The notes under the pieces were generated by a model that saw only the letters and a program-made list of their open reading frames with translations, ran no database searches and was not told where the DNA came from. From Syntrophomonadaceae bacterium (GTDB taxonomy: Bacteria; Bacillota; Dethiobacteria; DTU022; UBA8154), in NCBI GenBank assembly GCA_007131175.1, contig SLRC01000159.1, forward strand, positions 1 to 50,455: a stretch of 50,455 bases of DNA. The letters run 5' to 3'. Below are positions 5,466 to 50,455 of this stretch, in pieces. Positions within the stretch are counted from its first letter, which is position 1. Each line of letters opens with the position of its first letter. Position numbers and translations under genes: made by a program.

Positions 5466-5486
5466 CCTGGGAGGGGTTGAGCTGCC

Positions 5487-6479: not shown

Positions 6480-6492
6480 CACTTCCTTTTCA

Positions 6493-6521: not shown

Positions 6522-6551
6522 TGTTTTGATCCTTATTTGGAGGCAAATGAT

Positions 6552-26808: not shown

Positions 26809-26899
26809 CAGGAGTGGCTGTTTCTAAGGAAGTAAACCCAGGTTAAAGTGTGCAATGTGATTCGGGATTAATGCTTATCTTGATAAAGGAGGGCAAGGT

Positions 26900-27364
26900 A
26901 TGGGTCAAAATGGAACCCCCGGAGTGAGCAACAACCAAAAAGGTTTTACCCTGCTGGAGCTGTTGGTGGTTGTGGTGATCGTGGGAATATTGACAGCTAT
27001 GGCAGTTCCCAGGATCGGAAATCTAACACAAAACGCAGAAAGGTCTGCTGTTGAGGCGAATTTACGGACAATTGATTCTGCCATCATGATGTACCGTTCT
27101 GAAACAGGTTCTTACCCCGAAAACCTTGATGTCTTGAAAGATTATTTACAAGATGTGCCTGGGGGTCCTGGAAATGCAGTTTATGGAATAGCAAGATACA
27201 AAGAATATCTTGAGTATCGGGCTTATGTTTGGGCCAGTGAGGGAAAAGAACTGGTAGTAGGTGGAGGAAGCTTTGCCAGAGATGGGAATACAGGGTATTT
27301 TTTACCCATTGATTGGGAAGCTGATGCAGAGGGACATGTAAATATTATTGAGGATATCTCATGA
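26900..27364 (+). CDS. type IV pilin / pseudopilin (probable major subunit)
   Basis: Class III signal NNQKG|FTLLELLVVVVIVGIL with Glu+5. AAGGAGG RBS. Confidence 0.9.
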   Translation: MGQNGTPGVSNNQKGFTLLELLVVVVIVGILTAMAVPRIGNLTQNAERSAVEANLRTIDSAIMMYRSETGSYPENLDVLKDYLQDVPGGPGNAVYGIARYKEYLEYRAYVWASEGKELVVGGGSFARDGNTGYFLPIDWEADAEGHVNIIEDIS

Positions 27365-28494
27365 GTACTGCCTATCCTGGCGAAAAAGAAGGTTTAATAT
27401 TGCGTTTAACAAGAGTATTGTACCAGCCTTTAACCTATTCCCCTTTATTTTTTTGGGGACGTCCCGGTGCACAGGATATGATGAGTTTTTGTCACCAGTT
27501 TGCCGCTTTGCTAAATGCCGGCATTCCCATATTAAAAGGCCTGCTAATACTGGAAAAACAAGCTAATAATCCACGCCTCAAACATGGTATCAAAAAGGTT
27601 GCCTTACACGTGGAAAATGGTCACTCCCTGACAGAAGCAATGGCACAGGTGCAAGAAGTGTTTTCCCCTTTTTGTGTGGGCATGGTTGATGCAGGTGAAA
27701 TGGGTGGCAAGCTGGATAAAACGATGCATCGCTTGGCTCTCCATTATGAAAAAAAGAATCATCTGGAAAAAAAGATTAAGACAGCAACGGCTTACCCTAA
27801 ATTTATATTATTAGTTATCCTTGGAGTGGTTGTTTTTTTGCTTTCATCTGTACTACCCTCCTTTGCCGGGACTTTTAGCAGTATGGGGGTGGAACTTCCT
27901 CTGTCCACCCGGGTTATCATGAGTTTGGGAATGTTGATCCAAGTGTCCTGGCCATATTTACTGATCGGAGGGGCAATGGCGTACCTGGCTTCGTACTTGT
28001 TGCTTAAAATGGATAAGGTTGCCTATTATGCAGGTCATATGCAATTGCATCTCCCCCTTTTTGGTATCCTTTATCGCAAATTGTTAGTGGCACGTTTCTG
28101 CCGCACTTTCAGTATCTTGCTTGGTAGTGGCGTGACACTCTTAACTACCCTGGAACTGTCGAAGAATGTTGTTGTCAACCGAGTTTTTGTGGAGCGTGTT
28201 GCAGAAATGCGAAATGCCGTCATCAGGGGTGAATCAGTGGCATCGGCCCTGTCAGCGACAAAATTATTTCCCCTGACGGTAATCGGAATGGTGGATGTGG
28301 GTGAGCAGTCCGGCAAACTGGATGATATGTTGAGCCGGGCTGCAGATTTGTATGAATCTGAGGTTAATTATGTGGTGGACCGGCTTGGCTCATTACTGGA
28401 ACCTGCATTGGTAATATTGCTTGCGGTGGTGGTTGGTGGCATTGTCCTTTCTGTATTTTTGCCTCTTTTTGGGGTGTTTGAGCTTTATTTATAG
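27361..28494 (+). CDS. pilC: type IV filament platform protein (GspF/PilC/ComGB family)
   Basis: Two GspF-type repeats, three TM segments, ATGA overlap with the pilin gene. Confidence 0.9.
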   Translation: MSTAYPGEKEGLILRLTRVLYQPLTYSPLFFWGRPGAQDMMSFCHQFAALLNAGIPILKGLLILEKQANNPRLKHGIKKVALHVENGHSLTEAMAQVQEVFSPFCVGMVDAGEMGGKLDKTMHRLALHYEKKNHLEKKIKTATAYPKFILLVILGVVVFLLSSVLPSFAGTFSSMGVELPLSTRVIMSLGMLIQVSWPYLLIGGAMAYLASYLLLKMDKVAYYAGHMQLHLPLFGILYRKLLVARFCRTFSILLGSGVTLLTTLELSKNVVVNRVFVERVAEMRNAVIRGESVASALSATKLFPLTVIGMVDVGEQSGKLDDMLSRAADLYESEVNYVVDRLGSLLEPALVILLAVVVGGIVLSVFLPLFGVFELYL

Positions 28495-28509
28495 AAGGAG
28501 GATAGGATA

Positions 28510-28944
28510 TTGAACCGCTCTGAAAAGGGCTTAACACTATTGGAGGTTGTATTGAGTGTAGCGATTCTGAGCATCGTTTCCCTTACTTTTATTAATCTTT
28601 TTGGCAGCAGCTTTGCTGTCTCCGTACAATCGGGAAGGACAAGCAGGGCAACCGCACTGGCTCAGGGAAAAATGGAGGTTCTGCTGGCAAATAGTTTTGA
28701 AGAATTGGCTCAAATGGGTTCTGAGCTAAACATTGGAGTTAATTCCTGCCCCATGATGGCAGGCTCTTCTGTCCCCGTTTTCATTAAAGATTACGACGAA
28801 TTAGCATACTATTATAACATTCACAGCCATGAAATGAAGTTTGACGGTTACACAGTAAAGGGCCTACGCCTGGAAGTGGCAATTCTACAGAGGGAGGAAC
28901 GGGAGCTTGTCCGTATTACCACATTTGTTCCCGGCGAATTATAA
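28510..28944 (+). CDS. minor pilin (prepilin-type N-terminal cleavage/methylation domain)
   Basis: SEKG|LTLLEVVLSVAIL signal. AAGGAGGA RBS before TTG 28510. Confidence 0.8.
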   Translation: MNRSEKGLTLLEVVLSVAILSIVSLTFINLFGSSFAVSVQSGRTSRATALAQGKMEVLLANSFEELAQMGSELNIGVNSCPMMAGSSVPVFIKDYDELAYYYNIHSHEMKFDGYTVKGLRLEVAILQREERELVRITTFVPGEL

Positions 28945-29401
28945 AACAAAACAGGAAAATGGGTTTACCCTGATAGAGGTTCTTGCGGCCATAACCCTTT
29001 ATGCTGTCCTTTTAGGTTCTTTTTTCAGCCTGTACATTTATAGTGTTAATACGTACAGGGTAGGCTCTAATCTTTTGGATCTGCAGCAAAATGTGCGCGT
29101 GGCGACAGATTTTATCACCAGGGAGCTGCGGTATGCCCACGCGCTGCAGCTTATTAATGACCATGAAATACGATACAGTTGCCCTGCTGGCATAAAAAAT
29201 ACAATTAAATATAAAAACGGGGAAATTGTTCAGCTAATCAGCAATACAGAGACAAAGATTGCTTACGATATGGAAGGGCTTATCTTTGACTGGGATGAAG
29301 AGCGTAAAATTCTTCATTTTGTGATAAAGGGTGTAAGTGAAGGGACTGCATATACTGTTCAGTCCGCAGTATGCATACAAAACCTTCGTAAAAGGTGGTA
29401 G
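28925..29401 (+). CDS. minor pilin (PilW/ComGF-like)
   Basis: QENG|FTLIEVLAAITLYAV signal. Start uncertain (TTG 28925 or TTG 28907). Overlaps the preceding gene. Confidence 0.75.
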   Translation: MFPANYKTKQENGFTLIEVLAAITLYAVLLGSFFSLYIYSVNTYRVGSNLLDLQQNVRVATDFITRELRYAHALQLINDHEIRYSCPAGIKNTIKYKNGEIVQLISNTETKIAYDMEGLIFDWDEERKILHFVIKGVSEGTAYTVQSAVCIQNLRKRW

Positions 29402-29411
29402 GGGAGTAGAG

Positions 29412-30278
29412 ATGCTTTCTTCGCAAAAGGGTTCAGCGCTTATAATGGTTATGCTTGTGGCTGCAGTCCTCCTGCTGCTGTGTACATCATTAATTGACCT
29501 CAATAACGTGGATATGCAAATCTCCCTTAATCAGCGGGACAGTCTGCAAGCTTATTATCTTGCAGAAACGGGTATGGAAAGCGCCCTTTATGTACTGAAG
29601 AAATATGACCCATATTACACGGGTATTAGCACAACAGGATTTCCGGAAGGGAACGTTACCGTAAGTGTAAGTGCACAGGAAGAAGGGTATTGTGGGCGCA
29701 GTATTACTATAATATCCACTGGGAAAGTAGGCCGGGTACGGGAGCAAATAAGTCTTCAATTCCAATCTTACCCTTCATGTAAGGGCGCAACAGGAGGGTC
29801 TGCCCTGGGTTGGTATGACGAAACAGGGGGAATTATCGTACCGGGGAAGCATTTGAGTGGAGAAGAGGCCATAACGCTCGGTTTACCAGGGAGGAACTTT
29901 CCCATAGTTCTCGAAAAGAGTGAAGAGGAGAGTCATGCCCATTTTTCAGCGGCAAAACTCTATTTTATCAGTAAACCAACCAGCCTGGTTGTGGAAGAAA
30001 CCCTGGAACTAAGTACCGCTAAAGCAGTATTCCTGGGAAGGGTAATTTTGTGCCCCCAGGGCGGTAACCTGCACTTTATGCATCCCACAAACGGACCGGT
30101 GCATGTTTATTTTCGTGATTCCATAGTTACTATGGAACAACGTGTGGTGCTTGAAGCGGGAGTTTATCATTTTCCCCATGGCTACAATATTGGAGGAACT
30201 GCAAATCCGTCAGAACTGGGATATTTCCGGGTGCTACCTGCAGTTCCGGGAACGATGATGCGATGGGGCAGGGAGTGA
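29412..30278 (+). CDS. PilX/ComGG-like pilus-associated protein (288 aa)
   Basis: ATG 29412 after a GGGGAG RBS. N-terminus MLSSQKGSALIMVMLVAAVLLLL resembles the non-cleaved PilX-type N-terminus. Confidence 0.65.
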   Translation: MLSSQKGSALIMVMLVAAVLLLLCTSLIDLNNVDMQISLNQRDSLQAYYLAETGMESALYVLKKYDPYYTGISTTGFPEGNVTVSVSAQEEGYCGRSITIISTGKVGRVREQISLQFQSYPSCKGATGGSALGWYDETGGIIVPGKHLSGEEAITLGLPGRNFPIVLEKSEEESHAHFSAAKLYFISKPTSLVVEETLELSTAKAVFLGRVILCPQGGNLHFMHPTNGPVHVYFRDSIVTMEQRVVLEAGVYHFPHGYNIGGTANPSELGYFRVLPAVPGTMMRWGRE

Positions 30279-30285
30279 AAATACG

Positions 30286-30777
30286 CTGTTAAAACCGATT
30301 TGCGGATTAATAAAGCAAAAGCCCATACATTGCTTTGCCGGATATACTTTAATCGAGCTGCTTGCAGTCTTAGCCCTTATGGGAGTGCTGAGCGCACTTG
30401 CTATTCCCCGTATCACACTTCAAGCCAATTGGCAACTGGAAGTTATTTCACGCCGTATGGCTGCCGACTTGCGTTTGGTACGCCAGTCAGCTATTTTCTA
30501 CGGAGAACCTTGCCGAATAGATTTTTATATTCATATGAACCGATATACCTTGAAATTGCCTGATGAAACCCAACAGGTCGATCTCCCTGAGGGAGTCTCC
30601 TTTGACGGTAACACAACATTTCCTGGAAAGCCACCTACTATTCAGTTTAACAGTTTGGGTCGGCCTAGCAGCGGGGGTACAGTTATCCTGAAAGCCGGAA
30701 AAACTTATCGTTATATTATTGTCACACCTGTTACGGGAAGGGTAAGAATTTCCCGAATCCCGCCACAGCACTGGTAA
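30286..30777 (+). CDS. GspH/FimT-like minor pilin; start codon unresolved
   Basis: The frame is open from 30259 and encodes ...FAG|YTLIELLAVLALMGVLSALAIP upstream of the first ATG (30379). No ATG, GTG or TTG occurs in frame before the signal peptide. Candidates are CTG 30286, ATT 30298 and ATA 30310. Confidence 0.6.
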   Translation: MLKPICGLIKQKPIHCFAGYTLIELLAVLALMGVLSALAIPRITLQANWQLEVISRRMAADLRLVRQSAIFYGEPCRIDFYIHMNRYTLKLPDETQQVDLPEGVSFDGNTTFPGKPPTIQFNSLGRPSSGGTVILKAGKTYRYIIVTPVTGRVRISRIPPQHW

Positions 30778-39808: not shown

Positions 39809-40372
39809 ATGACAGGTGTGCGGACTTTCTTTACTGTTATGGGTTTAATATTGTTGATCGGAGGTCTGCTTTTTGCTTTTTTAACACTGGGCGTGTTCCA
39901 GGGGACAATGTTTCTTGGATTTGATCTAAGCCACCTGGTTAACAATTATACTTTTACGTCCCTCGGTTTTCTTGTATTGATCGTGGGAATTTTGCTGATT
40001 GCCCTCTCTACCTCCAAACGCAGCAGTGTTAAAGAGGAGGATCAAAAAAAAGAAGGGGGCAGCATAGTAAGTTATACCGAAATCGGAGAAGTGCGTATTT
40101 CTTTGAAGGCAGTTGAAAACATGGTATTGTCCGCTTCACGCAAGGTAAATGGCATCCGTGAAGTATCCACCCGTATAGACGCTAACGAGCAAGGCTTGCT
40201 GATTTATATAAAAATAAAAGCAATACCGGAGACTCCCATTCCTGCACTGGCAGGGGAGCTGCAGAACAAAGTGCGGGATTATGTTCAGGAGATAAGCGGG
40301 TCAAATGTGAGTGAAGTCAAAGTGCTTGTGGAAAACATTGCCCAGGACAAAATTCAAAGGAATCCCCGCTAA
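39809..40372 (+). CDS. amaP: alkaline shock response membrane anchor protein AmaP
   Basis: Two N-terminal TM segments plus an Asp23-like C-terminal region. Conserved partner downstream of asp23. ATG 39809 after GAAGGGAG. Confidence 0.8.
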   Translation: MTGVRTFFTVMGLILLIGGLLFAFLTLGVFQGTMFLGFDLSHLVNNYTFTSLGFLVLIVGILLIALSTSKRSSVKEEDQKKEGGSIVSYTEIGEVRISLKAVENMVLSASRKVNGIREVSTRIDANEQGLLIYIKIKAIPETPIPALAGELQNKVRDYVQEISGSNVSEVKVLVENIAQDKIQRNPR

Positions 40373-40384
40373 GGGTGTGATCAT

Positions 40385-40606
40385 ATGAACAGCGATAACA
40401 ATCAGTTTTTTGATATGCACAAGGAAAAGATTATTGGTGGTATTATTGGGTTGATTTTGGCTTTGCTTTTTGTTATTTTCGGTCTCTGGAATGCCATATT
40501 TATTATAGCCTTTGTTCTGATCGGAATATTCTTAGGCAGCCGTGAAGAGTTACGTAATGAGCTGCAAAACTTGTTTAATAGGTTATGGTACGGCCGGGAA
40601 CGTTAA
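40385..40606 (+). CDS. DUF2273 small integral membrane protein
   Basis: 73-aa two-TM protein, the third member of the asp23-amaP module. Confidence 0.75.
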   Translation: MNSDNNQFFDMHKEKIIGGIIGLILALLFVIFGLWNAIFIIAFVLIGIFLGSREELRNELQNLFNRLWYGRER

Positions 40607-40612
40607 TTTCTT

Positions 40613-40640
40613 TCACCGCCCCTGCGGGTGGTTTTTTTTA
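40613..40640 (+). terminator. intrinsic terminator
   Basis: CACCGC..GCGGGTG GC-rich stem followed by T8 (40632-40639). Confidence 0.75.
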
Positions 40641-40678
40641 TTTAATTTTCCCATAGGGGGAAATAAGGGAAGGTTATC

Positions 40679-40707
40679 TTGCCTGCCATAAATTTATGTT
40701 GTATATT
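40679..40707 (+). promoter_or_regulatory. sigma-A-type promoter upstream of nusB
   Basis: TTGCCT (40679-40684), 17-nt spacer, TATATT (40702-40707). Confidence 0.45.
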
Positions 40708-40768
40708 TATTCAGGCAACCTTACTTCCCCGCTTTTAATTTGTGCATTTTTTAGAGGAGGCTGCGGGA

Positions 40769-41194
40769 TTGAAAAGAAGAATTGCCCGGGAATGTGCCCT
40801 AAAGGTTCTATTTATGGTGGATATGGGTGCCAACGATGTTGAACAGGCTTTGCAATATATTTTAAATACCTCCTGTGAAGGGAAGGATGTTTTACAACCG
40901 CGGGAGCAGGACTTCTGCGCCACACTGGTACGGGGAGTTGTGTCAAAAAGGGATGAGTTAAGCAGTATGCTCACCCCTTTTCTAATAAACTGGCAGTTGG
41001 AGCGCCTTGCACCTGTTGTACGGTTGATCATGCATATGGCCCTATTTGAGACACTCCATATGGATGATATCCCTCCCGCCGTTACCATAAACGAAGCGGT
41101 GGAACTCTCCAGGCAATACCAGGATGAGGAATCAGCGCGCTTTGTCAACGCTGTCCTTGATAACATTCGCGTAAGCAGAGAAAAGAGCGATTAA
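40769..41194 (+). CDS. nusB: transcription antitermination factor NusB
   Basis: RRIARECALKVLF N-terminus, W.LERL and INEAVELSR..QDEESARFVNAVLD motifs. TTG 40769 after GGAGG. Confidence 0.93.
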   Translation: MKRRIARECALKVLFMVDMGANDVEQALQYILNTSCEGKDVLQPREQDFCATLVRGVVSKRDELSSMLTPFLINWQLERLAPVVRLIMHMALFETLHMDDIPPAVTINEAVELSRQYQDEESARFVNAVLDNIRVSREKSD

Positions 41195-41322
41195 GAATAT
41201 TGCGAATATTTGACGGGAAGAGGAAATTTGGACCTCATGCCGAAATAGAAACGAGGCGGGGTTATTGCCTCTGAAACCGCCTTCTTTGATAGATCAGAAA
41301 TATAATAAAGGAGTTGTTGCTT

Positions 41323-41835
41323 ATGGCTACATCGGCTAAAACATTGGAGGTTGGTGCGATTCCTTATGATGAGATCGACACAATCATTGGGAATTACAAG
41401 GGGGATTCCAGCGCTATTATACCTATTCTCCAGGATATCCAGGAAATAATAGGCTACGTTCCCAAGGATGGCATCGCTTACATGGCAGAAAAGCTTGAGG
41501 TTTCAGCGGCGAAAATATACGGTATTGCCACTTTTTACGCGCAATTCCGTCTTCAACCTGTGGGCAAGCATATCATTATGCTTTGTGAAGGAACGGCCTG
41601 TCACGTTAACGGAGCCAAGCTAATCGCCGGTGCAATTACGGACGAGCTGGCTATACGGGGAGGAGAAACCACCCCTGATGGCCTGTTCACTTTTGAGAAG
41701 GTTGCTTGTATTGGATGCTGCAGCCTTTCTCCTGTAATGGTGATCAGCGGGGAAACATATGCCAAACTGACTCCTGATGCCACCCGCAAGATAATAAAAG
41801 AATACCAGGAAAAAGAAGCAGCAGCACAAAATTAA
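41323..41835 (+). CDS. NuoE/HydC-like [2Fe-2S] subunit of a flavin-based bifurcating (Bfu/Stn-type) complex
   Basis: Thioredoxin-like 2Fe-2S motif CEGTAC...CIGCCSLSP. AAAGGAG RBS before ATG 41323. Confidence 0.88.
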   Translation: MATSAKTLEVGAIPYDEIDTIIGNYKGDSSAIIPILQDIQEIIGYVPKDGIAYMAEKLEVSAAKIYGIATFYAQFRLQPVGKHIIMLCEGTACHVNGAKLIAGAITDELAIRGGETTPDGLFTFEKVACIGCCSLSPVMVISGETYAKLTPDATRKIIKEYQEKEAAAQN

Positions 41836-41860
41836 AGTGAGGGAGCGAGGAGGTGTCTGA

Positions 41861-43630
41861 ATGGAAGAGCATGGAAAGACAGTTATTAAGGTAGGCCTTA
41901 GTACCTGTGGCATCGCCGCGGGGGGAACTAAGACATATGAAGCCCTTAAAGCAGCCATCAAAGAGAATAAACTTGATGTGGTGCTGCAGAAAACCGGTTG
42001 CATTGGTATGTGTTACCAGGAGCCAATTGTTGACGTGATAACTCCTGACGGCAATCTTTATTCTTACGGAGCTGTAGATGAAGAAACAGGCCGCCGTATT
42101 CTTGCTGAGCATGTTAAGGGTGGCACTCCAGTACAGGATTCTCTGATCAGCGAAGAGAGGGAATCTATTGTAGGTGGACAGGTACGGATATCTTTGCGTA
42201 ATTGCGGCATCATTGACCCTGAATCTTTGGAAGATTACCGTGCCAGCGGTGGTTACCAGGCACTGGAAAAAGCGCTTAAGGAAATGACTCCGGAGCAAGT
42301 CATTGAGGAAGTGCTCCGTTCAGGGTTGCGAGGCCGTGGCGGTGCCGGCTTCCCCACGGGGCTAAAATGGCGCTTTACCCGTATGAACGAAGGGGATCAG
42401 AAATACATTATCTGTAATGCCGATGAGGGTGACCCGGGTGCATTCATGGATCGCAGCATAATTGAGGGTGATCCTCATGCTGTGGTTGAAGGTATGATGC
42501 TTGCCGGTTATGCCATTGGAGCCTCCATGGGCCATATTTACTGTCGGGCTGAATACCCCCTTGCCATCGTACGCCTTGAAAAAGCAATGCAAGATGCCCG
42601 GAATGCCGGATTATTAGGTAAAAATATCCTTGGTTCGGGGTTTGACTTTGAGCTAAAGGTAAAGAAGGGAGCCGGCGCTTTTGTTTGTGGCGAAGAGACG
42701 GCCCTGATTGCATCTCTAGAAGGGGAACGGGGAATGCCACGCCTTAAACCTCCTTTTCCTGCGGAACAGGGTCTTTGGCGTAAACCCACCAGTATCAATA
42801 ACGTGGAAACATTTGCCAATGTCCCCTGGATCATATCAAATGGAGCGGACAAGTACGCCGCTTACGGAACAGAAAAGAGCAAGGGAACAAAGGTTTTTGC
42901 TTTGGCCGGTAAGATGAACAATGGTGGACTGATTGAGGTTCCCATGGGAGTTACTTTGCGAGACATTATTTTTGGAGTAGGTGGAGGCGTCCGGGATAAC
43001 AAAAAGTTTAAAGGAGTGCAGTTGGGCGGGCCTTCGGGGGGCTGTATTCCTGAGAGTCTGCTGGATACGTCGGTGGAATACGAGTCACTTACCCGTACCG
43101 GTGCCATCATGGGTTCAGGCGGAATGATCGTTATGGATGAGACGACCTGTATGGTGGACATGGCCCGTTATTTCCTTGACTTTGTGCAAAACGAGTCCTG
43201 TGGCAAGTGTGTCCACTGCCGTCTCGGGACAAAGCGCATGCTCGAAATTCTTACCCGCATTACCGAGGGGAAAGCAGCGCCGGAAGAGCTGGACTTACTG
43301 GAAGAATTAGCATACAACGTTAAGGAAGGTGCCTTATGCGGATTAGGGCAGACAGCCCCGAATCCTGTACTGACAACCCTCAAATATTTCCGTGACGAAT
43401 ATGAAGCACATATTCACGACCGCTGTTGTCCGGCCAAGTCATGTCCCGAGCTTCTTACCTATACCATTGATATGGAACTCTGTAATGGATGCCGTCGTTG
43501 TGCCAAACATTGTCCCGCTGAAGCCATAACTGGTGAAAAGAAAGAACCCCACGTTGTGGACCAGGAGAAGTGCATTAAATGCGGCAACTGTATTGATGCT
43601 TGTAAATTCGATGCAATAATGGCAGAATAA
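41861..43630 (+). CDS. NuoF/HydB-like FMN- and NADH-binding subunit with extra Fe-S domains
   Basis: N-terminal 2Fe-2S (STCG...CIGMC), GLRGRGGAGFPTGLKW and CNADEGDPGAF FMN/NADH motifs, SCGKCVHCR N3 cluster, C-terminal CNGCRRCAKHCP and CIKCGNCIDAC. Confidence 0.92.
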   Translation: MEEHGKTVIKVGLSTCGIAAGGTKTYEALKAAIKENKLDVVLQKTGCIGMCYQEPIVDVITPDGNLYSYGAVDEETGRRILAEHVKGGTPVQDSLISEERESIVGGQVRISLRNCGIIDPESLEDYRASGGYQALEKALKEMTPEQVIEEVLRSGLRGRGGAGFPTGLKWRFTRMNEGDQKYIICNADEGDPGAFMDRSIIEGDPHAVVEGMMLAGYAIGASMGHIYCRAEYPLAIVRLEKAMQDARNAGLLGKNILGSGFDFELKVKKGAGAFVCGEETALIASLEGERGMPRLKPPFPAEQGLWRKPTSINNVETFANVPWIISNGADKYAAYGTEKSKGTKVFALAGKMNNGGLIEVPMGVTLRDIIFGVGGGVRDNKKFKGVQLGGPSGGCIPESLLDTSVEYESLTRTGAIMGSGGMIVMDETTCMVDMARYFLDFVQNESCGKCVHCRLGTKRMLEILTRITEGKAAPEELDLLEELAYNVKEGALCGLGQTAPNPVLTTLKYFRDEYEAHIHDRCCPAKSCPELLTYTIDMELCNGCRRCAKHCPAEAITGEKKEPHVVDQEKCIKCGNCIDACKFDAIMAE

Positions 43631-43697
43631 GGGCGTTAAATATGGAGGCGGCATATAAGAGACTAAATTTACACAGTAAAGGGGTTGAGCTAAGCGC

Positions 43698-46600
43698 ATG
43701 AGTTGCCTGCGAATTAATATTAACGGACGGGAACTATGTGGCCATGGGGACCAGACGATTCTGGAAATAGCCACGGCCAATAATATTCATATTCCCACCC
43801 TTTGTTTTAGCGGCGATCTGGAGGTGTACGCTTCCTGTGGCCTTTGCCTGGTAGAGGTAAAGGGAATGCCACGCTTGCTGCGGGCCTGTGCCACAAAGAT
43901 TGCCGATGGTATGATTATCCAGACTGAAAATGAAAAGATTAGAAAAGCACGGAAGCTGGCTCTGGAACTTATACTTTCCGATCACCGCGGTGACTGCCGT
44001 GCTCCCTGTGTAATGGCATGCCCGGCCAACTGTGATGCCCAGGGCTATGCTGCGCTGGTGGCGAATGGTGATTATAAAGGGGCGCTTAAGTTAATCAAGG
44101 AGTTTATGCCATTTCCCTCTTCCATTGGGCGGGTTTGTCCTGCACCCTGTGAAGATAATTGCCGAAGGAATCTGATGGAAGGGCCCGTCTCCATCCGTTA
44201 TTTTAAACGTTTGGTGGGCGACTTGGATATGGCCAGCGATGATCCTTACGTGCCGGAAGTGGCTCCTGATACGGGTAAGAAAATTGCTGTTATTGGTTCC
44301 GGACCGGCCGGATTGACTGCCGCGTTCTTTCTGCGCCGTCGCGGTCATGCCGTTACTGTTTTTGAGGCGTTGCCGGAGATGGGTGGTATGCTCCGTTATG
44401 GTATTCCTGAATATCGTCTTCCCAAAAAGGTTTTGGGAGCTGAAATTCAGCAGATCCTGGATCTGGGTGTGGATGCGCATACCAATGTGCAGTTAGGAGA
44501 AGATTTTACCATCGATTATCTTTTTAAGAACGACTATGATGCCGTTTATATAGCCATTGGTGCCCAGAACAGTAAAAACATGGGCGTAACCGGTGAGGAA
44601 ATGCCTGGAGTATTGGGTGGCACTGAATTTTTACGGGCAGTTATGCTTAATGAAGAAGTTGTTCTGGGAAGCCGTGTTGCGGTTGTCGGTGGCGGTAACA
44701 CAGCCATGGATGCGGCACGGACAGCCAAGCGCCTCGGTGCGGATGAGGTTACTGTTGTTTATCGCAGGGCCCGGGAACAAATGCCCGCTCAGCCTATTGA
44801 GGTTGAGGAAGCGGAAGAAGAAGGTGTGGAATTCAACCTCCTTGCTGCTCCCATCAAGATAGAGGGGAACGGCAAGATTGAAAAGATGGTTTGCCAGAAG
44901 ATGCAACTGGGTGAACCGGATGCATCGGGCCGCCGTCGTCCTGAACCTATACCAGATGCATATTTCACTCTTGATGTGGACACTGTAATCGCTGCTATTG
45001 GTCAGGATGTGGACGTTGAGAATATTAAGAAAGATGTGGCTGTTAACCGCTATCAAACAATCGAAGCAAAAGACGGGACATTTCTTACCAGTGTTCCCGG
45101 TGTATTTGCCGGCGGGGATGCAGTAACGGGACCGGGGATTGCTATCGAAGCTATTGCCGCCGGAAAGCGTGTGTCAGAGGTTATAGATAACTACCTGCAG
45201 GGAAAATTGTCTCCGTACCGCACCTATTTTAATATCATCAGGGAAGGGCTCACGGAAGAGGATTTTGCTGATAAACCGCGGCAGGAAAGAGTAAAAATGC
45301 CTGTTGTGGAACCGGAGGTACGGGTTAATAATTTCCGTGAGATCGAACAGGGCCTCCTGCCGGATGATGCCACGAAGGATGGAGTTCGTTGCCTGGAATG
45401 CGGCTGTTTTGATGTTTTTGAATGCAAACTGCGTGACTATGCGACTAAATACGATGCAAAACCGGAGCGCATTGTAGGTGAAAAACACGATTATGAACTG
45501 GAGCTCCACCCACTGATCGTGCGTGATCCGAATAAATGTATCCTCTGTGGGCTTTGCGTGCGCACCTGTGCCGAAATCATCGGTGCAGAGGCACTGGGTT
45601 TGGTTAACCGGGGTTTTAACGCTTATGTAAGCCCCTCCCTTGACCTTCCCCTGGAAAAAACGACTTGTGTGGCATGTGGGCAGTGTGTTGCATCCTGTCC
45701 CACCGGTGCCCTTGTGGAAAACATGCCTTTCGCTAAACCTGCCCCCTGGGAACTTCAGGTGACATCAACCATTTGCGGTTATTGCGGTGTAGGTTGTAGC
45801 ATGCATGTGGAAACTGTGGGAGATAAAATAGCCCGTGTAGTTCCGCTCAATGGACCGGTTAATAATGGCATTCTCTGCAAAAAAGGGCGTTTTGGTTTTG
45901 AGTATGTAAACAGTGAGGAAAGACTAAAAAATCCTCTCATTCGTGAGGATGGGGTTCTAAAGGAGACAACCTGGGACGACGCCCTGCTTCATATCGCCAA
46001 GAAGGCCAAATCGCTTAAAGCCCGTTACGGGGGTAATTCCTTGGCTGTATTTGCTGCAGCACGTTACAGCAATGAAGAGAGTTATCTTATTCAAAAATTT
46101 GCCCGTGCCGTACTGGGGACAGATAACCTGAACAGCTTTAATGAGCCGGCAAACCCTCTAACGGCCCAAATTGGTATGGGAGCTTCTACAAATTCCTTTG
46201 AAGAATTTGCTTCAGCCGATTTTATCTTAGCCGTTGATGTGGATTTTGACGATTACCCTATTGCTGTACTGCAAATTAGGCAGGCTGCGGAGCAAGGAAC
46301 GGCCCTCTGGATTATTCATGAAGGGGAAAGCAAACTTGCAAACTATGCAAAGCAGACGCTGAAGATTAAGGAAGGGGCGAATACAAACTTCCTGGCTGCC
46401 CTGCTCATTGTAGCCTGTGAAAATGGCCTGGTAAACAGGGACTTTGTCGAGCAGTATACAGAAAACTACGAGGAACTTGCAGCATTGTTGAAAGAGCGCA
46501 GTGCAGAAGAAATGCTCCAGGGCAGCGGCCTGACCAAGGATGAAATTCAAGCCCTCTTGGAAGCTTATGCCGGGGCAAAAAGCCCGCTGCTCGTTCTGGG

Positions 46601-47417
46601 TAGCCGTAACTTGAGCGGTGAAGCAAATGCATTACTGTCAAACCTGGCACTATTGCTGGGCAAAGTGGGCGCACCACGCCAGGGAATCATTAACTTGCGG
46701 GGGCGCTGCAATAGCCAGGGACTTTTCGATATGGGAATTACTCCGGGGTACTTGCCCGGATATCAGAAGATCGAAGCTGAAAAAGTCAGGGAAAGGTTTG
46801 AACATGCCTGGCGTGCCCCCTTGCCGGTAACAGCAGGCAAGCACATGGATAAAGTTATGGAAGGTCTGGATGATGGGACGATTAAAGGCGTGTTTGTTTT
46901 CGGTGAGGATCCTTCTGCAGAAATGGTGGAAAAACTGGCAAAAGCAGACTTATTGGTGGTACAGGATCTCTTTCTTACGGAAACAGCACGCCGTGCAGAC
47001 GTCGTGTTACCCGCCGTAAGCTTCGCGGAAACGGAAGGCAGTTTTGTCAACAGTGAAAGGCGTGTCCAACAGCTTAATCCTGCTATCAGCCCCGTTACAG
47101 GACGGCAAAACTGGCAAATATTACTTGAACTGATGGAGCAGATGGGTTATTACCAGAAACCGCAGTCTCCGGAGCAAATCTGGCAGGAAATGAAATCTTT
47201 AACCCCATCTTTTAGCACTATCAACTATAATTCACTGAAAAACGCTCCATTCTGGCCGGGAGAACCGGTGTGCAATGTTGATTCAATGCTGGCTGCTGTA
47301 GGCCGTTTGAAGTTTATTTTACCATCCGGTGATACCCCCGCTTTTGTGGAACGTGACTCTGCCGACAGTGTGGGAAAATGGTTCAAAGCCTTTCTATGGG
47401 AGAGAGGTTTGGAATAA
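43698..47417 (+). CDS. 1239-aa fusion of 2Fe-2S ferredoxin, GltD/NfnB-like NADPH:FAD oxidoreductase, 2x[4Fe-4S] and a degenerate formate-dehydrogenase-like module (StnC-like)
   Basis: N-terminal NuoG/HydA-type 2Fe-2S fold. GltD cluster motifs (CRAPCVMACPANC, GRVCPAPCEDNC). VIGSGPAGL FAD and VVGGGNTAMD..YRR NADPH folds. CILCGLCVRTC / CVACGQCVASCP. MopB-type CGYCGVGC...CKKG cluster. No Sec/Cys-His catalytic pair, no C-terminal MGD-cap domain, no H-cluster motifs. Confidence 0.85.
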   Translation: MSCLRININGRELCGHGDQTILEIATANNIHIPTLCFSGDLEVYASCGLCLVEVKGMPRLLRACATKIADGMIIQTENEKIRKARKLALELILSDHRGDCRAPCVMACPANCDAQGYAALVANGDYKGALKLIKEFMPFPSSIGRVCPAPCEDNCRRNLMEGPVSIRYFKRLVGDLDMASDDPYVPEVAPDTGKKIAVIGSGPAGLTAAFFLRRRGHAVTVFEALPEMGGMLRYGIPEYRLPKKVLGAEIQQILDLGVDAHTNVQLGEDFTIDYLFKNDYDAVYIAIGAQNSKNMGVTGEEMPGVLGGTEFLRAVMLNEEVVLGSRVAVVGGGNTAMDAARTAKRLGADEVTVVYRRAREQMPAQPIEVEEAEEEGVEFNLLAAPIKIEGNGKIEKMVCQKMQLGEPDASGRRRPEPIPDAYFTLDVDTVIAAIGQDVDVENIKKDVAVNRYQTIEAKDGTFLTSVPGVFAGGDAVTGPGIAIEAIAAGKRVSEVIDNYLQGKLSPYRTYFNIIREGLTEEDFADKPRQERVKMPVVEPEVRVNNFREIEQGLLPDDATKDGVRCLECGCFDVFECKLRDYATKYDAKPERIVGEKHDYELELHPLIVRDPNKCILCGLCVRTCAEIIGAEALGLVNRGFNAYVSPSLDLPLEKTTCVACGQCVASCPTGALVENMPFAKPAPWELQVTSTICGYCGVGCSMHVETVGDKIARVVPLNGPVNNGILCKKGRFGFEYVNSEERLKNPLIREDGVLKETTWDDALLHIAKKAKSLKARYGGNSLAVFAAARYSNEESYLIQKFARAVLGTDNLNSFNEPANPLTAQIGMGASTNSFEEFASADFILAVDVDFDDYPIAVLQIRQAAEQGTALWIIHEGESKLANYAKQTLKIKEGANTNFLAALLIVACENGLVNRDFVEQYTENYEELAALLKERSAEEMLQGSGLTKDEIQALLEAYAGAKSPLLVLGSRNLSGEANALLSNLALLLGKVGAPRQGIINLRGRCNSQGLFDMGITPGYLPGYQKIEAEKVRERFEHAWRAPLPVTAGKHMDKVMEGLDDGTIKGVFVFGEDPSAEMVEKLAKADLLVVQDLFLTETARRADVVLPAVSFAETEGSFVNSERRVQQLNPAISPVTGRQNWQILLELMEQMGYYQKPQSPEQIWQEMKSLTPSFSTINYNSLKNAPFWPGEPVCNVDSMLAAVGRLKFILPSGDTPAFVERDSADSVGKWFKAFLWERGLE

Positions 47418-47444
47418 ACAGGAGCATTATAAGGAGGATACATT

Positions 47445-48329
47445 ATGACAGCAAAGATTATTTCCGGTAACGAAGTGGCGGCGGAGATCAGAAAAGAGCT
47501 TACGGCAAGGGTGGCAGAATTAAAAAATAAGGGTATAGTTCCCGGTCTGGGTGTGGTTCTCGTAGGTGAAGATCCCGCTTCCGTTTCCTATGTTACCAGC
47601 AAGGCAAAAGGATGCCAGGAGATCGGCATGTTTGAGGAAACAGTCCGTCTGCCTGCAGATGTGCCTGAAGAAGATGTGCTAAAAACTATTGACCGCATGA
47701 ATAATGACCCCAAAATAAGTGGCATCCTGGTACAATTACCCTTACCAAAGAACATCAGTGTGGAAAAAGTGATCGGCTTTATTTCCCCTGAAAAGGATGT
47801 GGACGGTTTTCACCCTGTTAACCTGGGTAAACTGTTAAGGGGTGAACCATGTCCCCTTCCCTGTACCCCCCATGGTGTGAAACAATTGCTGGTCCGTTCC
47901 GGCAATGATCCTGCTGGAAAGCATGTGGTTATCTGTGGCCGCAGTAACATTGTGGGCAAGCCGCTTTCAGCCATATTGATGCAGAAGGAAGCTGGAGCCA
48001 ATGCCGTGGTAACGGTGGTGCATACAGGCGCAAGCGATATTAAACACTATACACTGCAAGCAGATATTCTTGTGGCTGCCATGGGCGTTCCCGAGTTTAT
48101 TACTGCTGACATGGTTAGAGAAGGCACTGTTGTTATCGATGTGGGCGTGAACCGGATTCCCGATGCTACCAAGAAAAAAGGTTTCCGACTGGCAGGAGAT
48201 GTGGAATATGGACCTGTTGCAGAGAAGGCATCGTTTATCACCCCGGTTCCCGGTGGTGTGGGGCCAATGACGGTTACCATGCTTCTTTATAATACTGTTG
48301 AAGCAGCGATCAGACTGAACGAAGCATAG
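47445..48329 (+). CDS. folD: bifunctional methylenetetrahydrofolate dehydrogenase/methenyl-THF cyclohydrolase
   Basis: Full-length 294 aa: SYVTSKAK catalytic Lys motif, VQLPLP, DVDGFHP, GRSNIVGKP Rossmann loop, PVPGGVGPMT. AAGGAGG RBS. Confidence 0.95.
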   Translation: MTAKIISGNEVAAEIRKELTARVAELKNKGIVPGLGVVLVGEDPASVSYVTSKAKGCQEIGMFEETVRLPADVPEEDVLKTIDRMNNDPKISGILVQLPLPKNISVEKVIGFISPEKDVDGFHPVNLGKLLRGEPCPLPCTPHGVKQLLVRSGNDPAGKHVVICGRSNIVGKPLSAILMQKEAGANAVVTVVHTGASDIKHYTLQADILVAAMGVPEFITADMVREGTVVIDVGVNRIPDATKKKGFRLAGDVEYGPVAEKASFITPVPGGVGPMTVTMLLYNTVEAAIRLNEA

Positions 48330-48343
48330 GAGGTAAACGATAT

Positions 48344-48835
48344 ATGCCCGCCAAACTGATTAAGGGAGACAAGGTAGCCGACCGCTTGCGGGAAGAGATG
48401 GCTGCAGAGCTTAAAGATATTTATGCTGAGACGGGTCAGTTTCCAGGTTTGGCGGTTATTATCGTGGGAGAAGATTCCGCTTCCCTATCTTACGTAACGA
48501 ATATTGAAAGCAAGAGTAACGCCCTGGGTTTTAATGTAATGATACACCGGTTATCCGTTGATGTTTCGGAAGGGGAACTGCTGCAATTGATCGAAGAATT
48601 GAACTACAATGATAATGTTCATGGCATCATGATACAGCTACCCCTTCCGGAACATATAAACCTACATGTTGTTCAGGAGGCTTTGGACCGGGAAAAAGAC
48701 GTTGATGTTGTCCATGATGTTTTGATTGCTGCCACAGGGAAACCGGGGCTTGTTAAAGAAGACTGGATTAAGCCTGGGGCTATGGCAATAGCCATGTTGT
48801 TGGACAATTTGATTAAGGCTGCCCGGAGCTCATGA
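48344..48835 (+). CDS. internally deleted FolD paralog (163 aa; pseudoenzyme or decaying gene)
   Basis: The N-terminal about 120 aa align with FolD (PGLAVIIVGEDSAS, IQLPLP, EKDVD). The DGFHP-to-GRSNIVGKP region and the PVPGGVGP region are missing. The catalytic Lys position reads SYVTNIES. The stop overlaps the xseA ATG (ATGA). Confidence 0.75.
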   Translation: MPAKLIKGDKVADRLREEMAAELKDIYAETGQFPGLAVIIVGEDSASLSYVTNIESKSNALGFNVMIHRLSVDVSEGELLQLIEELNYNDNVHGIMIQLPLPEHINLHVVQEALDREKDVDVVHDVLIAATGKPGLVKEDWIKPGAMAIAMLLDNLIKAARSS

Positions 48836-50067
48836 TCGAAAGACAGGTCTTTACGATTACAAAGCTAAGCCAGTATTTAAAAGATTTGTTTTGGCAGGAC
48901 GATCTACTGCAGAATTTGTGGGTAAGTGGCGAAATCTCAAATTATAAATGCCACAATCCTTCCGGCCACATATATTTTACATTAAAAGATGAGCAGAGTG
49001 TCCTGCGCTGTGTTTATTTCCGGAAAAAGAATGCTTTGTTGAGGTTTGCTCCCACGGAGGGAATGAAAGTTATGGTCCGGGGGAGTGTTTCACTTTATGA
49101 ACGCAGTGGCTATTACCAACTTTATGTGGAGGAGATGGAACCGGAGGGTCTCGGTGCTTTATTTCTTGCATATGAACAATTAAAAGCAAAATTATCACAG
49201 CAAGGGCTTTTTGATGAACAGTGCAAAAAGCCCTTGCCCTATGTTCCACAAAAAATTGGGTTGATTACTTCTCCATCTGGTGCAGCAGTCAGGGACTTTC
49301 TCACAACGCTTAAGCGCAGATTTCCCTGTGTACAGGTACTACTTTACCCCGTTGCGGTGCAGGGAAAGGAAGCACCGTTGCAGATCAATAACGCTCTTCA
49401 GGAATTGGATAAACGGGGGCTTGATGTAATTGTGATGACCAGGGGTGGAGGCTCTTTGGAAGAACTCTGGTGTTTTAATGATGAAACGGTGGCACGTTCA
49501 GTCTTTATGCTCAAGACACCACTTGTCAGTGCCATTGGTCATGAGACTGATTACACTATTGCCGATTTTGTTGCAGATAAAAGGGCATCCACCCCTACGG
49601 CTGCTGCTGAATTAATTGCCCCTGAACAATCAGAGTTGCTCCGTTATCTGAACATGCAGGAACAACTTATGGGCAGTATCATATTTAAAAACATGCAAAA
49701 AAAAAGATATTTATTGGAACAGTTTGCTGCATCAGGTGCATTGAAACATCCACGGGAAAAGATAAACCTGAACCATCAACGGATGGACGAACTGTGGTCC
49801 CGGCTCAATCGGGCTATGGAACTGTTTATGCGTAATAATTTAACAAAACTTGAAAGATCTATAGAAAATCTTGAAGCCCTAAGTCCTTTGAATGTGCTTA
49901 TGCGCGGCTATACCCTTGTGTTTGACCCAGAGAAAAACCGTCCCCTTAAAGCATTGCACAATGTAAAGAAAGGACAGGGACTAAAAATACTATTTCATGA
50001 CGGGAATGCTTACTGTACCGTGAATAAAGTGGAAAGGAAAGAAGAGGATATAATTGACAGAAAATAA
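48832..50067 (+). CDS. xseA: exodeoxyribonuclease VII large subunit
   Basis: N-terminal OB fold (WVSGEISNYK..SGHIYFTLKD), TRGGGSLEELWCFN and AIGHETDYTIADFVAD motifs. Confidence 0.95.
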   Translation: MIERQVFTITKLSQYLKDLFWQDDLLQNLWVSGEISNYKCHNPSGHIYFTLKDEQSVLRCVYFRKKNALLRFAPTEGMKVMVRGSVSLYERSGYYQLYVEEMEPEGLGALFLAYEQLKAKLSQQGLFDEQCKKPLPYVPQKIGLITSPSGAAVRDFLTTLKRRFPCVQVLLYPVAVQGKEAPLQINNALQELDKRGLDVIVMTRGGGSLEELWCFNDETVARSVFMLKTPLVSAIGHETDYTIADFVADKRASTPTAAAELIAPEQSELLRYLNMQEQLMGSIIFKNMQKKRYLLEQFAASGALKHPREKINLNHQRMDELWSRLNRAMELFMRNNLTKLERSIENLEALSPLNVLMRGYTLVFDPEKNRPLKALHNVKKGQGLKILFHDGNAYCTVNKVERKEEDIIDRK

Positions 50068-50275
50068 ATTAACCTTTGAAGAAGGACTGGAAAAGCTGGA
50101 GAAGCTGATCTCCAATCTGGAGAAAGGTGATCTCACTCTGGAAGAATCCCTTTATAAATTTCAAGAAGGGATGGAACTAACCCGTCATTGTCGAAGTTTA
50201 CTTACGGATGCGGAATACCGAGTGGAGATGATCCTGCAGGATGGGGAAAGAGGCGAGGTTAAACTGGAGGGTTAA
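50054..50275 (+). CDS. xseB: exodeoxyribonuclease VII small subunit
   Basis: LTFEEGLEKLEKLISNLEKGDLTLEESL..FQEGMEL typical XseB helix pair. TTG 50054 overlaps the end of xseA. Confidence 0.9.
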   Translation: MTENKLTFEEGLEKLEKLISNLEKGDLTLEESLYKFQEGMELTRHCRSLLTDAEYRVEMILQDGERGEVKLEG

Positions 50276-50455
50276 TTTAGGATAGACGGACATGCCGCCC
50301 TCTATGTTGCCGGCACCATTAGATAAATGAAAATGCACAAGAGGGGTGCAAGGTTGGCTGTGAGCAACCGTTCAGGCTCGATGAAAAGGCTTTACCGGAA
50401 CGGGGTTGCCACATTTTACTGTCTGAGCGCAGCGAGTTTAAAATGTGTGCCGGGA

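Follow-up and report, generated by a model that had tools for sequence, protein, structure and literature searches.

What do three adjacent genes on contig SLRC01000159.1 of a Syntrophomonadaceae bacterium (GenBank assembly GCA_007131175.1; GTDB lineage Bacteria; Bacillota; Dethiobacteria; DTU022; UBA8154) encode, given that automatic annotation would name their products NuoE, NuoF and 'molybdopterin-dependent oxidoreductase / formate dehydrogenase major subunit'? The window that we analysed is the whole stretch of 50,455 nt, and the genes lie within 41323-47417 as three intact, co-directional (+) open reading frames (ORFs) of 170, 589 and 1239 aa, here called the small, B and large subunit genes, with intergenic gaps of 25 nt (small/B) and 67 nt (B/large). 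A preliminary description, made from the letters and translated ORFs, had reported the same three tightly spaced genes and had proposed that they encode a probable electron-bifurcating transhydrogenase of the Stn/Bfu type. Our ORF calls agree with it, including its ATG at 41323 as the small-subunit start, and the assignment is supported by the ranking of solved structures, sequence identities, predicted fold, retention of cofactor ligands and loss of catalytic capacity in a formate dehydrogenase (FDH)-like domain. We conclude, with a probability of about 0.88, that the three genes encode a heterotrimeric NfnABC/StnABC-type electron-bifurcating transhydrogenase of the Bfu family.

Each of the three proteins was searched against all chains of the PDB. 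For all of them the top matches among solved structures were 9BOV, the NfnABC of Caldicellulosiruptor saccharolyticus (Li et al. 2025, PMC11829005), and 8OH5, the StnABC of Sporomusa ovata (Kumar et al. 2023, PMC10482914). The large subunit matched 9bov_A (9BOV/9BP5) with E = 0 and 1125 bits and 8oh5_C (8OH5/8OH9) with E = 0 and 1013 bits, in both cases over residues 1-1237. The B subunit matched 8oh5_B (5e-274) and 9bov_B (1.5e-262) ahead of HydB (5e-219), and the small subunit matched 9bov_C (2e-58) and 8oh5_A (6e-52) ahead of HydC (2e-46). Third in rank was 9N5U, the Nfn-Bfu of Thermococcus sibiricus (large 1e-209, B 1e-249, small 9e-50; PMC12018979). HydABC and NAD-dependent formate dehydrogenases scored lower; FDH alpha subunits matched the C-terminal half of the large subunit only (~1e-110), and HydA matches were confined to its N-terminal Fe-S domains. 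Chance is not an issue as a source of these matches (E = 0, 5e-274 and 2e-58 for the best of each protein). The C. saccharolyticus, S. ovata and T. sibiricus complexes have been shown experimentally to reduce NAD+ and ferredoxin with NADPH by flavin-based bifurcation (PMC11829005, PMC7483475, PMC9304861).

Full-length BLASTP against reference sequences rebuilt from printed alignments gave identities to C. saccharolyticus and S. ovata of 44.7% and 41.9% for the large subunit, 63.6% and 65.5% for B, and 59.5% and 54.7% for the small subunit. An AlphaFold2 model covering residues 1-1200 of the large subunit (mean predicted local distance difference test score 86.4, predicted template modelling score 0.76), with the FDH-like domain modelled at high confidence, has an NfnA/StnC-like fold. 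A Foldseek search with this model returned 9bov_A at template modelling (TM) scores of 0.89/0.91 and 8oh5_C at 0.88/0.90 over ~1190-1200 columns, followed by T. sibiricus NfnA (0.68/0.84) and NAD-dependent formate dehydrogenases (~0.5).

The large subunit is a NuoG/HydA-type Fe-S scaffold that carries an inserted GltD/NfnB-like module for NADPH and flavin adenine dinucleotide (FAD) and ends in a catalytically dead FDH-like domain. Its Pfam domains are Fer2_4, Fer4_20, Pyr_redox_2, Fer4_Nqo3, Molybdop_Fe4S4 and Molybdopterin, with Fer4_7 too. The Pfam check proposed in the preliminary description recovered the family architecture in all three proteins and reproduced the chain of domains claimed for them; the motifs GSGPAGL, GGGNTAMD and YRR were all found in the 1239-aa translation. 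Conservation of ligands was scored on an alignment of 122 large-subunit homologs, in which 27 Cys are conserved in at least 99% of sequences, and all 27 are present in the window protein. The Cys complement fits one [2Fe-2S] and six [4Fe-4S] clusters, as in both reference structures. The N-terminal [2Fe-2S] has the ligands C36, C47, C50 and C64 (conserved in 99% of homologs), the three [4Fe-4S] sites of the NuoG-like wire have C565/568/570/576, C614/617/620/624 and C657/660/663/667 (all 12 at least 99% conserved), and the FDH-like domain has a [4Fe-4S] of its own (C693/696/700/727).

The GltD/NfnB-like module, which matched NfnB in the PDB search (4ylf_B 3e-91, 5jca_L 7e-80), has C100, C104, C108, C147, C151, C155 and Lys170 for its two [4Fe-4S] clusters. 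The FAD site (GSGPAGL and R240) and the NADPH site (GGGNTAMD...YRR) are both intact. The first [4Fe-4S] after FAD has an unusual fourth ligand, Lys170, which is strictly conserved in StnC and essential by mutagenesis (PMC10482914), and in the C. saccharolyticus enzyme this cluster, A7, is held by Cys108/Cys147/Cys151/Lys170 (PMC11829005). K170 is invariant in 122/122 homologs, and so is R240, which aligns to R239 of S. ovata; mutagenesis has shown the importance of both R239 and K170 in the S. ovata enzyme (PMC10482914).

The B subunit is BfuB/HydB/NuoF-like, with Complex1_51K, SLBB, NADH_4Fe-4S and two Fer4 domains in Pfam, a weak N-terminal thioredoxin-like 2Fe-2S match, and the core motifs GRGGAGFPTG and NADEGDPGAF for flavin mononucleotide (FMN) and NAD(H). 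Every Cys and His common to both reference B subunits is present. These comprise the ligands of the B1 [4Fe-4S] (C447, C450, C453, C493), the linker's Zn site, B2 (H517, C523 and C528 assigned, the reference site being 3 Cys + 1 His), the B3/B4 2x[4Fe-4S] domain that would reduce ferredoxin (C541/544/547/551 and C571/574/577/581), and the B5 site (C16, C47, C51) in a thioredoxin-like domain at the N-terminus. An 'extra 2Fe-2S' had been described in this protein: the ligand site is there, and its occupant may be [2Fe-2S] or Zn, since the same ligand pattern holds [2Fe-2S] in S. ovata and Zn in C. saccharolyticus (PMC11829005). The FMN/NAD(H) core and sites B1-B5 that mark a bifurcation-competent BfuB are thus all found in the sequence, whereas non-bifurcating NuoF/FdsB homologs are without B2-B5 (PMC11829005). 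The small subunit is BfuC/HydC/NuoE-like (2Fe-2S_thioredx, 5e-51), and the ligands of its C-terminal [2Fe-2S], C1 (LCEGTACH...ACIGCCS), align with those of NfnC and StnA.

B and small subunits of this kind also occur in HydABC-type bifurcating hydrogenases and in complex I (NuoEFG), and a membership in either would explain the HydC and HydB matches at E 1e-46 and 1e-219 and the NCBIfam scores for NuoE (NF005722, 157 against a cut-off of 141) and NuoF (NF010120, 395 against 389). However, Nfn/Stn subunits outscored Hyd and Nuo subunits for all three proteins, the large subunit has a GltD insertion that is absent from HydA and NuoG, and there are no further nuo genes nearby in the window. Pfam found no hydrogenase H-cluster domain in any of the three proteins, which bears out the earlier statement that this is not a HydABC hydrogenase. 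We give a hydrogenase or a complex I fragment next to no probability.

The C-terminal domain was aligned to M. extorquens FDH with HMMER and, independently, to E. coli FdhH with MAFFT. At the place of the catalytic Sec/Cys-His pair (U140-H141 in FdhH) there is a 5-residue deletion that the window protein has in common with StnC and NfnA. The pterin-capping domain IV is absent: only 12/130 of its FdhH columns align, and Pfam gave no PF01568 (Molydop_binding) match in the large subunit. Without the pair and without domain IV there is no pterin site, and as the H-cluster is missing too, the 1239-aa protein is neither a formate dehydrogenase nor a hydrogenase. The absence of a catalytic Sec/Cys had been noted before us and is borne out here, and no FDH or hydrogenase active site, whose retention the preliminary description had named as telling against its own proposal, was found on alignment. 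What the domain does keep is R1001 (FdhH R333), K729 (FdhH K44) and a 37-residue FDH-like segment (1016-1052) that is missing from the characterised enzymes, which are of a shorter form.

A formate dehydrogenase of the Fdh-Bfu type, linked to NAD(P)H and possibly bifurcating, might still be read from the match of the C-terminal 550 residues to FDH alpha subunits (E 1e-80 to 1e-110), from the name 'formate dehydrogenase major subunit' given to several homologs by JGI, from the retained segment 1016-1052 and R1001, by which the long-form clade described below keeps more FDH-like sequence, and from a homolog, P0068, whose FDH module is apparently intact. Set against this are the deleted Sec/Cys-His pair, the missing domain IV, an NCBIfam Fdh-alpha score of 423 bits under a cut-off of 666, and the equivalent S. 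ovata domain, which is cofactor-free and catalytically inactive (PMC10482914). We consider this reading effectively refuted by the sequence. Candidates that were rejected include a real formate dehydrogenase, a hydrogenase and complex I, on active-site, domain and neighbourhood tests, and also a glutamate synthase small subunit: the best NCBIfam match, 'putative NADPH-dependent glutamate synthase small subunit', scored 690 against a cut-off of 916 bits. In S. ovata the FDH-like domain of StnC is needed for assembly of a tetramer of heterotrimers (PMC10482914), and by analogy the domain in the transhydrogenase described here is probably a non-catalytic scaffold for assembly or tetramerisation.

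The homolog P0068 deserves mention in its own right. It is a 1356-aa protein, 45% identical to the window large subunit, encoded at 2564-6634 of locus L022 (MAG Clostridiales, a metagenome-assembled genome; JAAYHT010000049.1) in a NuoE-like/NuoF-like/large operon of the same order as in the window. It keeps an apparently intact FDH module with NCARLCHSSSV (Cys-His), LRGQNNVQGACDMG and domain IV (PF01568). It could represent a StnC/NfnA of ancestral type, or else belong to a Bfu enzyme acting on NADPH as well as on formate.

Table 1. Positions in the window of the three subunit genes, the domains of the large subunit and two neighbouring features.
Feature	Position	Strand	Basis and remarks
Conserved non-coding block	41189..41246	+	after nusB stop, upstream of small-subunit gene
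Small subunit gene (NfnC/StnA)	41323..41835	+	170 aa; Pfam, PDB matches, start from ribosome-binding site
B subunit gene (NfnB/StnB)	41861..43630	+	589 aa; Pfam, PDB matches
Large subunit gene (NfnA/StnC, BfuA)	43698..47417	+	1239 aa; full-length PDB matches, fold model
N-terminal [2Fe-2S] domain (A1 in Nfn, C4 in Stn naming)	43698..43991	+	residues 1-98; Fer2_4 5e-17
GltD/NfnB-like module	43992..45227	+	residues 99-510; Fer4_20, Pyr_redox_2
NuoG-like wire, three [4Fe-4S] sites	45375..45737	+	residues 560-680; Fer4_Nqo3, Fer4_7
Vestigial FDH-like domain	45753..47417	+	residues 686-1239; Molybdop_Fe4S4, Molybdopterin; own [4Fe-4S]
folD-1	47445..48329	+	methylene-tetrahydrofolate dehydrogenase/methenyl-tetrahydrofolate cyclohydrolase; NCBIfam FolD models ~1e-105

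The positions of the genes and domains are given in Table 1. Nfn names follow the Adams and Li laboratories and Stn names the Mueller and Schuller laboratories, so that the whole enzyme is called NfnABC, Nfn-Bfu (type 1) or StnABC. For the small subunit, ATG 41323 stands 9 nt downstream of an AAAGGAG ribosome-binding site (41307-41313). The alternative mechanical start, TTG 41314, directly abuts this site, and for this reason ATG 41323 is the better start; the orthologue in L001, the closest relative, is also 170 aa long. The GC content is 0.48-0.50 across the three genes against 0.445 in the immediate flanks. We rejected a recent transfer inferred from GC, because other, housekeeping parts of the window also reach 0.49 and the offset therefore gives it no support.

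The window protein has no close relative from a cultured organism among its nearest matches: the closest large subunits (61-89% identity) are all encoded in uncultured MAGs, which carry the labels Dethiobacter sp., 'Syntrophomonadaceae bacterium' (soda-lake sediment) or Bacillota. Together with the window protein they fall in a long-form clade of 39 sequences that are at least 52% identical and 1235-1244 aa long, and the two bacterial enzymes that have been characterised lie apart from them in a short-form clade (~1190 aa). At 44 positions the long form has an invariant residue that the short form rarely has. Six such clade-diagnostic changes surround the first [4Fe-4S] after FAD (T112C, C114A, H149A, A167R, W168Y and F172L), and another diagnostic residue, Cys1004, lies in the vestigial FDH motif 'RGQNNVQ'. 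Cys114, which sits beside cluster C7/A7 in S. ovata, is the only family feature that the window protein lacks: it has Ala114 together with Cys112 (ANCDA vs xxTDC), and this covarying C112/A114 switch is found in 40/122 homologs and in all 38 long-form sequences. The C114A mutant of the S. ovata enzyme had 50% activity, and its authors described the residue as not strictly conserved (PMC10482914). With the surroundings of the first post-FAD cluster remodelled in this way, redox tuning could differ from that of the characterised enzymes. A more remote idea is that the 'dead' domain retains some ligand binding or a part in regulation through the clade-invariant Cys1004, Arg1001 and the extra FDH-like segment.

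The different A7 environment is one of the points that could favour another physiological acceptor in an enzyme of the same architecture. The complex might then use NADPH to reduce sulfur/polysulfide or Fe(III), in the manner of Nso or SfrAB, or be a simple NADPH oxidoreductase that does not bifurcate. This would suit Dethiobacter, which in culture respires both sulfur compounds and Fe(III) (PMC10376724). The homologs P0028 and P0047 are labelled 'NADPH-Fe(3+) oxidoreductase subunit beta', and the first description of an archaeal relative was as an NADPH-dependent sulfur oxidoreductase, Nso (PMC10482914, PMC7483475). A plain NADPH reductase, however, needs none of the B2, B3/B4, C1 and NAD(H)/FMN sites, and all of these are kept. 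The 'NADPH-Fe(3+) oxidoreductase' names are automatic transfers. Kremp et al. have argued that Nso is really an Nfn, and high dye and diaphorase side-activities are typical of Nfn-Bfu/Stn enzymes (PMC7483475), while the Thermococcus homolog, when properly tested, proved to be a tightly coupled Nfn (PMC9304861). We therefore regard a sulfur or Fe(III) reductase as unlikely and retain the transhydrogenase.

By homology to the solved enzymes we infer the following mechanism for the complex. NADPH would pass a hydride to FAD in the GltD-like module of the 1239-aa subunit, and single electrons would then travel from FAD to the Lys170-ligated [4Fe-4S], along the NuoG-type chain to the N-terminal [2Fe-2S], and on through B1 to the FMN of the 589-aa subunit. 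There the B1-FMN-C1 'flavobicluster' would bifurcate: high-potential electrons would reduce NAD+ at FMN, and low-potential electrons would pass by way of the mobile [2Fe-2S] of the 170-aa subunit to B3/B4 and ferredoxin (Fd). The net reversible reaction would be 2 NADPH + NAD+ + Fd(ox) <-> 2 NADP+ + NADH + Fd(red). The FDH-like domain and the side-branch clusters would serve tetramer assembly, as in S. ovata. The activity itself, its direction and the oligomeric state, like the co-transcription with folD considered below, are what the sequence leads us to expect.

Of the known systems, the C. saccharolyticus NfnABC ranks first in the PDB search for the large and small subunits. It is built of the same three subunits in the same architecture, with identical ligand sets for A1-A7, B1-B4, the B5 site and C1, the A7 ligands at the same residue numbers, and a likewise dead FDH-like domain. 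The window large subunit is ~60 residues longer, keeps segment 1016-1052, has R1001 where the C. saccharolyticus protein has Thr, and differs around A7 (ANCDA and A149 vs AHTDC and H149). C. saccharolyticus is a thermophilic sugar fermenter in which the enzyme makes biosynthetic NADPH, whereas the window lineage is Dethiobacter-like. The S. ovata StnABC, the best match for B, also has the same subunits and cofactor sites, the same three-gene order (SOV_1c07740-07760) and the equivalents of K170 and R239. Its genes lie beside C1/Wood-Ljungdahl genes, and the window module lies next to folD. StnC differs in having Cys114, where the window protein has Ala114 and a Cys two residues earlier, and in larger deletions of the FDH-like domain; S. 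ovata is a Negativicute acetogen, whereas the window comes from a Dethiobacter-like spore-former. The T. sibiricus NfnABC (PMC12018979, PMC9304861) shares the BfuBC core and the reaction proposed here, but its NfnA is ~280 residues shorter, with a truncated FDH-like domain and one cluster fewer than the window large subunit.

More distant systems share parts of the complex. In the HydABC enzymes of T. maritima, A. woodii and T. kivui the BC core is homologous, with the same proposed FMN/B1/C1 bifurcation and mobile C1 domain, but the third substrate is H2 at the HydA H-cluster, where the window complex has the GltD-type NADPH:FAD insertion and the dead FDH domain instead. NfnAB/NfnSL of T. maritima and P. 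furiosus catalyses the same net reaction, and the NADPH:FAD + 2x[4Fe-4S] module of NfnB/NfnL is homologous to that of the window large subunit. It is nevertheless an unrelated two-subunit enzyme, in which the FAD of NfnB/NfnL bifurcates, whereas in Stn/NfnABC the FAD is non-bifurcating and the FMN of B bifurcates; one cluster ligand is Glu in NfnB and Lys170 in the window large subunit. No NfnA/S-like gene is adjacent to the window module. Among formate dehydrogenases (R. capsulatus FdsABG, M. extorquens Fdh1, E. coli FdhH), the fold family of the window C-terminal domain and its [4Fe-4S] are shared, and FdsB and FdsG are homologous to the window B and small subunits, but the B-subunit homologs of these enzymes are without B2-B5 and non-bifurcating.

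The small/NuoF-like/large gene order is kept in 21/21 related loci that cover the module. Among loci at 61% or more large-subunit identity, nusB precedes the module wherever the upstream flank is present. At this identity, folD (one to three copies) is what comes directly after the module in 15/15 loci whose sequence runs beyond the large-subunit gene, the window included (L018 ends inside that gene), and xseA comes next where the contig reaches. The genes nusB-folD-xseA-xseB-ispA-dxs form a classical Firmicute gene cluster, and the module is in effect inserted into it. In three loci with the same large subunit (P0010; L002, L003 and L013) a TsaD-like gene stands between nusB and the small-subunit gene; in L002 and L013, from Dethiobacter sp. 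SURF_39, it lies at 4437-5384. At 54% identity or less the module sits elsewhere: next to a convergent dihydrofolate reductase (DHFR) gene once, near parAB once, and beside other neighbours in C. formicaceticum and T. oceani. The DHFR_1 gene, at 11711-12304 (-) of locus L007, overlaps the large-subunit 3' end in a 54%-identical long-form relative, and its product is another NADPH-dependent folate enzyme.

In the window, folD-1 starts 27 nt past the large-subunit stop and has its own ribosome-binding site. A scan of 40300-50455 for promoters and terminators detected no terminator in this gap, and folD-1 is probably co-transcribed with the module. Its product is likely to be the NADP(H)-linked metabolic partner of the complex. 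A call of NADP or NAD use from the GRS motif of FolD-1 was considered and rejected, as this motif occurs in both NADP- and NAD-dependent FolD/MTHFD enzymes.

The folD region shows signs of duplication and decay. The 163-aa 'folD' ORF at 48344-48835 (+) is a decayed mosaic of folD-2 and folD-3, leaving only folD-1 as an intact copy in the window organism. Mosaic residues 1-124 correspond to the N-domain of folD-2, at 76-78% identity to intact copies of 285-286 aa in relatives. They are followed by a stretch matching folD-2 residues 205-228, and the last ~15 residues are the folD-3 C-terminus (IAMLLDNLIKAARSS vs ...ARNS). A deletion has removed the NAD(P)-binding Rossmann core (GRSNIVG), and nothing else is left of folD-3. 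Across the relatives' genomes the copy number of folD varies from one to three, with up to three tandem full-length paralogs before xseA (L001 11769-14449, L010 10035-12698, and similarly L014, L015, L017 and L019). The xseA-proximal folD-3 has an aberrant N-terminal motif, VVVRSPFARIHVARLKER in place of LVGEDPASVSYVTSK, which suggests that its catalysis may be altered or lost. In SURF_39, one gene call gives folD-2 (12714-14171) as a 485-aa product with an added adenosine/AMP-deaminase (A_deaminase) domain. Three consecutive folD-type genes are also listed for 'Ca. Contubernalis alkaliaceticus' (PMC10608574), which is consistent with the tandem array in relatives of the window locus. The 27-nt junction itself is not universal, because an 89%-identical relative carries an insert of ~300 nt between the large-subunit gene and folD (L010 9718-10034). 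This insert has two copies of the motif CATTGCGA[A/G]CG...GCGCGGCAATCT...CCAACCTGAGATCGCC and resembles a small repeat or an element of the miniature inverted-repeat transposable element (MITE) type.

Upstream of the module, the conserved non-coding block listed in Table 1 has many invariant columns in its segments AATATTGCGAATAT ... GGAAGAGGAAATT ... CCTCATGCCGAAAT across five relatives (83-89% large-subunit identity), whereas the nusB/small-subunit spacer diverges among them elsewhere. The block could be a promoter or an operator/protein-binding site, and we treat it as a candidate. Rfam gave no RNA family in the whole window at gathering thresholds or in the spacer at E <= 1, and the spacer RNA fold is no more stable than that of shuffled sequence (z = -0.84), so that no riboswitch or leader is claimed. 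The scan of 40300-50455 gave 20 promoters against 14.5 +/- 4.0 in shuffled sequence and 17 terminators against 11.3 +/- 3.7, which is not clearly above expectation. It showed no convincing promoter between nusB and the small-subunit gene, and the only strong terminator (40615-40632) lies upstream of nusB; for these reasons the transcription unit probably runs from nusB through xseA.

The rest of the window is a housekeeping stretch of a spore-forming, Dethiobacter-like Firmicute. It contains scfB, rarA, mnmA, alaS, ruvX, mltG, a penicillin-binding protein gene, apgM, addBA, sigK, a comG-type pilus cluster, pepQ, efp, spoIIIAA-AH, asp23/amaP, nusB, folD and xseA. At its left end, the product of 432-1778 (+) is a thioether peptide maturase of the SCIFF radical SAM/SPASM type (457 bits with TIGR03974, which exceeds the cut-off). 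Three ORFs of 257-318 aa (9529-10485, 24784-25557 and 29337-30278, all +) had no NCBIfam match at E <= 1e-10, and the second and third are located in or next to the comG/type IV pilus-like cluster (25579-30777).

Several observations weigh against the transhydrogenase assignment or against the role in folate metabolism that we attach to it. The large subunit is 42-45% identical to the characterised ones, which share 51% with each other, and the long-form clade to which it belongs is known from sequence alone. The S. ovata Cys114, whose mutation halves activity, is replaced by Ala, and the first cluster after FAD has remodelled surroundings (T112C, H149A, A167R, W168Y, F172L). The folD linkage is absent at 54% identity or less. 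It may go back to one ancestral insertion of the module into the conserved nusB-folD-xseA cluster and not to selection for co-expression, and synteny is for this reason weak evidence for functional coupling. Finally, the window has no Wood-Ljungdahl genes other than folD.

With these points in mind, the complex most likely connects the pools of NADH and ferredoxin with C1/Wood-Ljungdahl metabolism, at the step of the NADP(H)-dependent methylene-tetrahydrofolate (methylene-THF) dehydrogenase. In the reductive direction it would supply NADPH; in the oxidative direction, NADPH derived from FolD would be converted to NADH and reduced ferredoxin. Dethiobacter-related lineages carry the Wood-Ljungdahl pathway, running forward or in reverse (PMC6146748, PMC10376724, PMC10608574), and S. 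ovata, whose methylene-THF dehydrogenase is NADP-specific, has its stn genes placed just downstream of the Wood-Ljungdahl cluster (PMC7483475). A bolder and rather doubtful idea is that the long-form NfnABC is a dedicated, co-expressed partner of methylene-THF dehydrogenase in Dethiobacteria and an unrecognised step in syntrophic acetate oxidisers. If this were true, acetate oxidisers using the reverse Wood-Ljungdahl pathway would turn FolD-derived NADPH into NADH and reduced ferredoxin for H2/formate production, a link from NADPH to NADH and ferredoxin that is missing from published energy-conservation models for the syntrophic acetate oxidisers of Dethiobacteria.

In conclusion, the operon adds a member to an already well-studied family and leaves what is known of that family unchanged. 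The family came to light in 2020 and was assigned to the Bfu superfamily in 2022, and cryo-electron microscopy solved its structure on three occasions in 2023-2025. Kremp et al. (2020, PMC7483475) found stn clusters in several phyla and in 20/48 genomes of acetogens, a group in which Stn and Nfn were nearly mutually exclusive. What is modestly new is the long-form subclade with its remodelled first-cluster shell, a possible natural variant set for studying how the Lys-ligated cluster is tuned, and the fixed position upstream of tandem folD paralogs. The terms Nfn, Stn and transhydrogenase do not occur in four genome analyses of related organisms (PMC10608574, PMC6295475, PMC10376724, PMC6146748), and mislabelling of the kind that automatic annotation would give hides a redox-balancing enzyme in Dethiobacter-like lineages of soda lakes and the subsurface. 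In anaerobes living close to the thermodynamic limit, the balance of NADPH, NADH and ferredoxin is set by transhydrogenases of the Bfu type, and an operon fixed upstream of folD within this lineage offers a concrete link between C1-folate metabolism and electron bifurcation that is open to testing.

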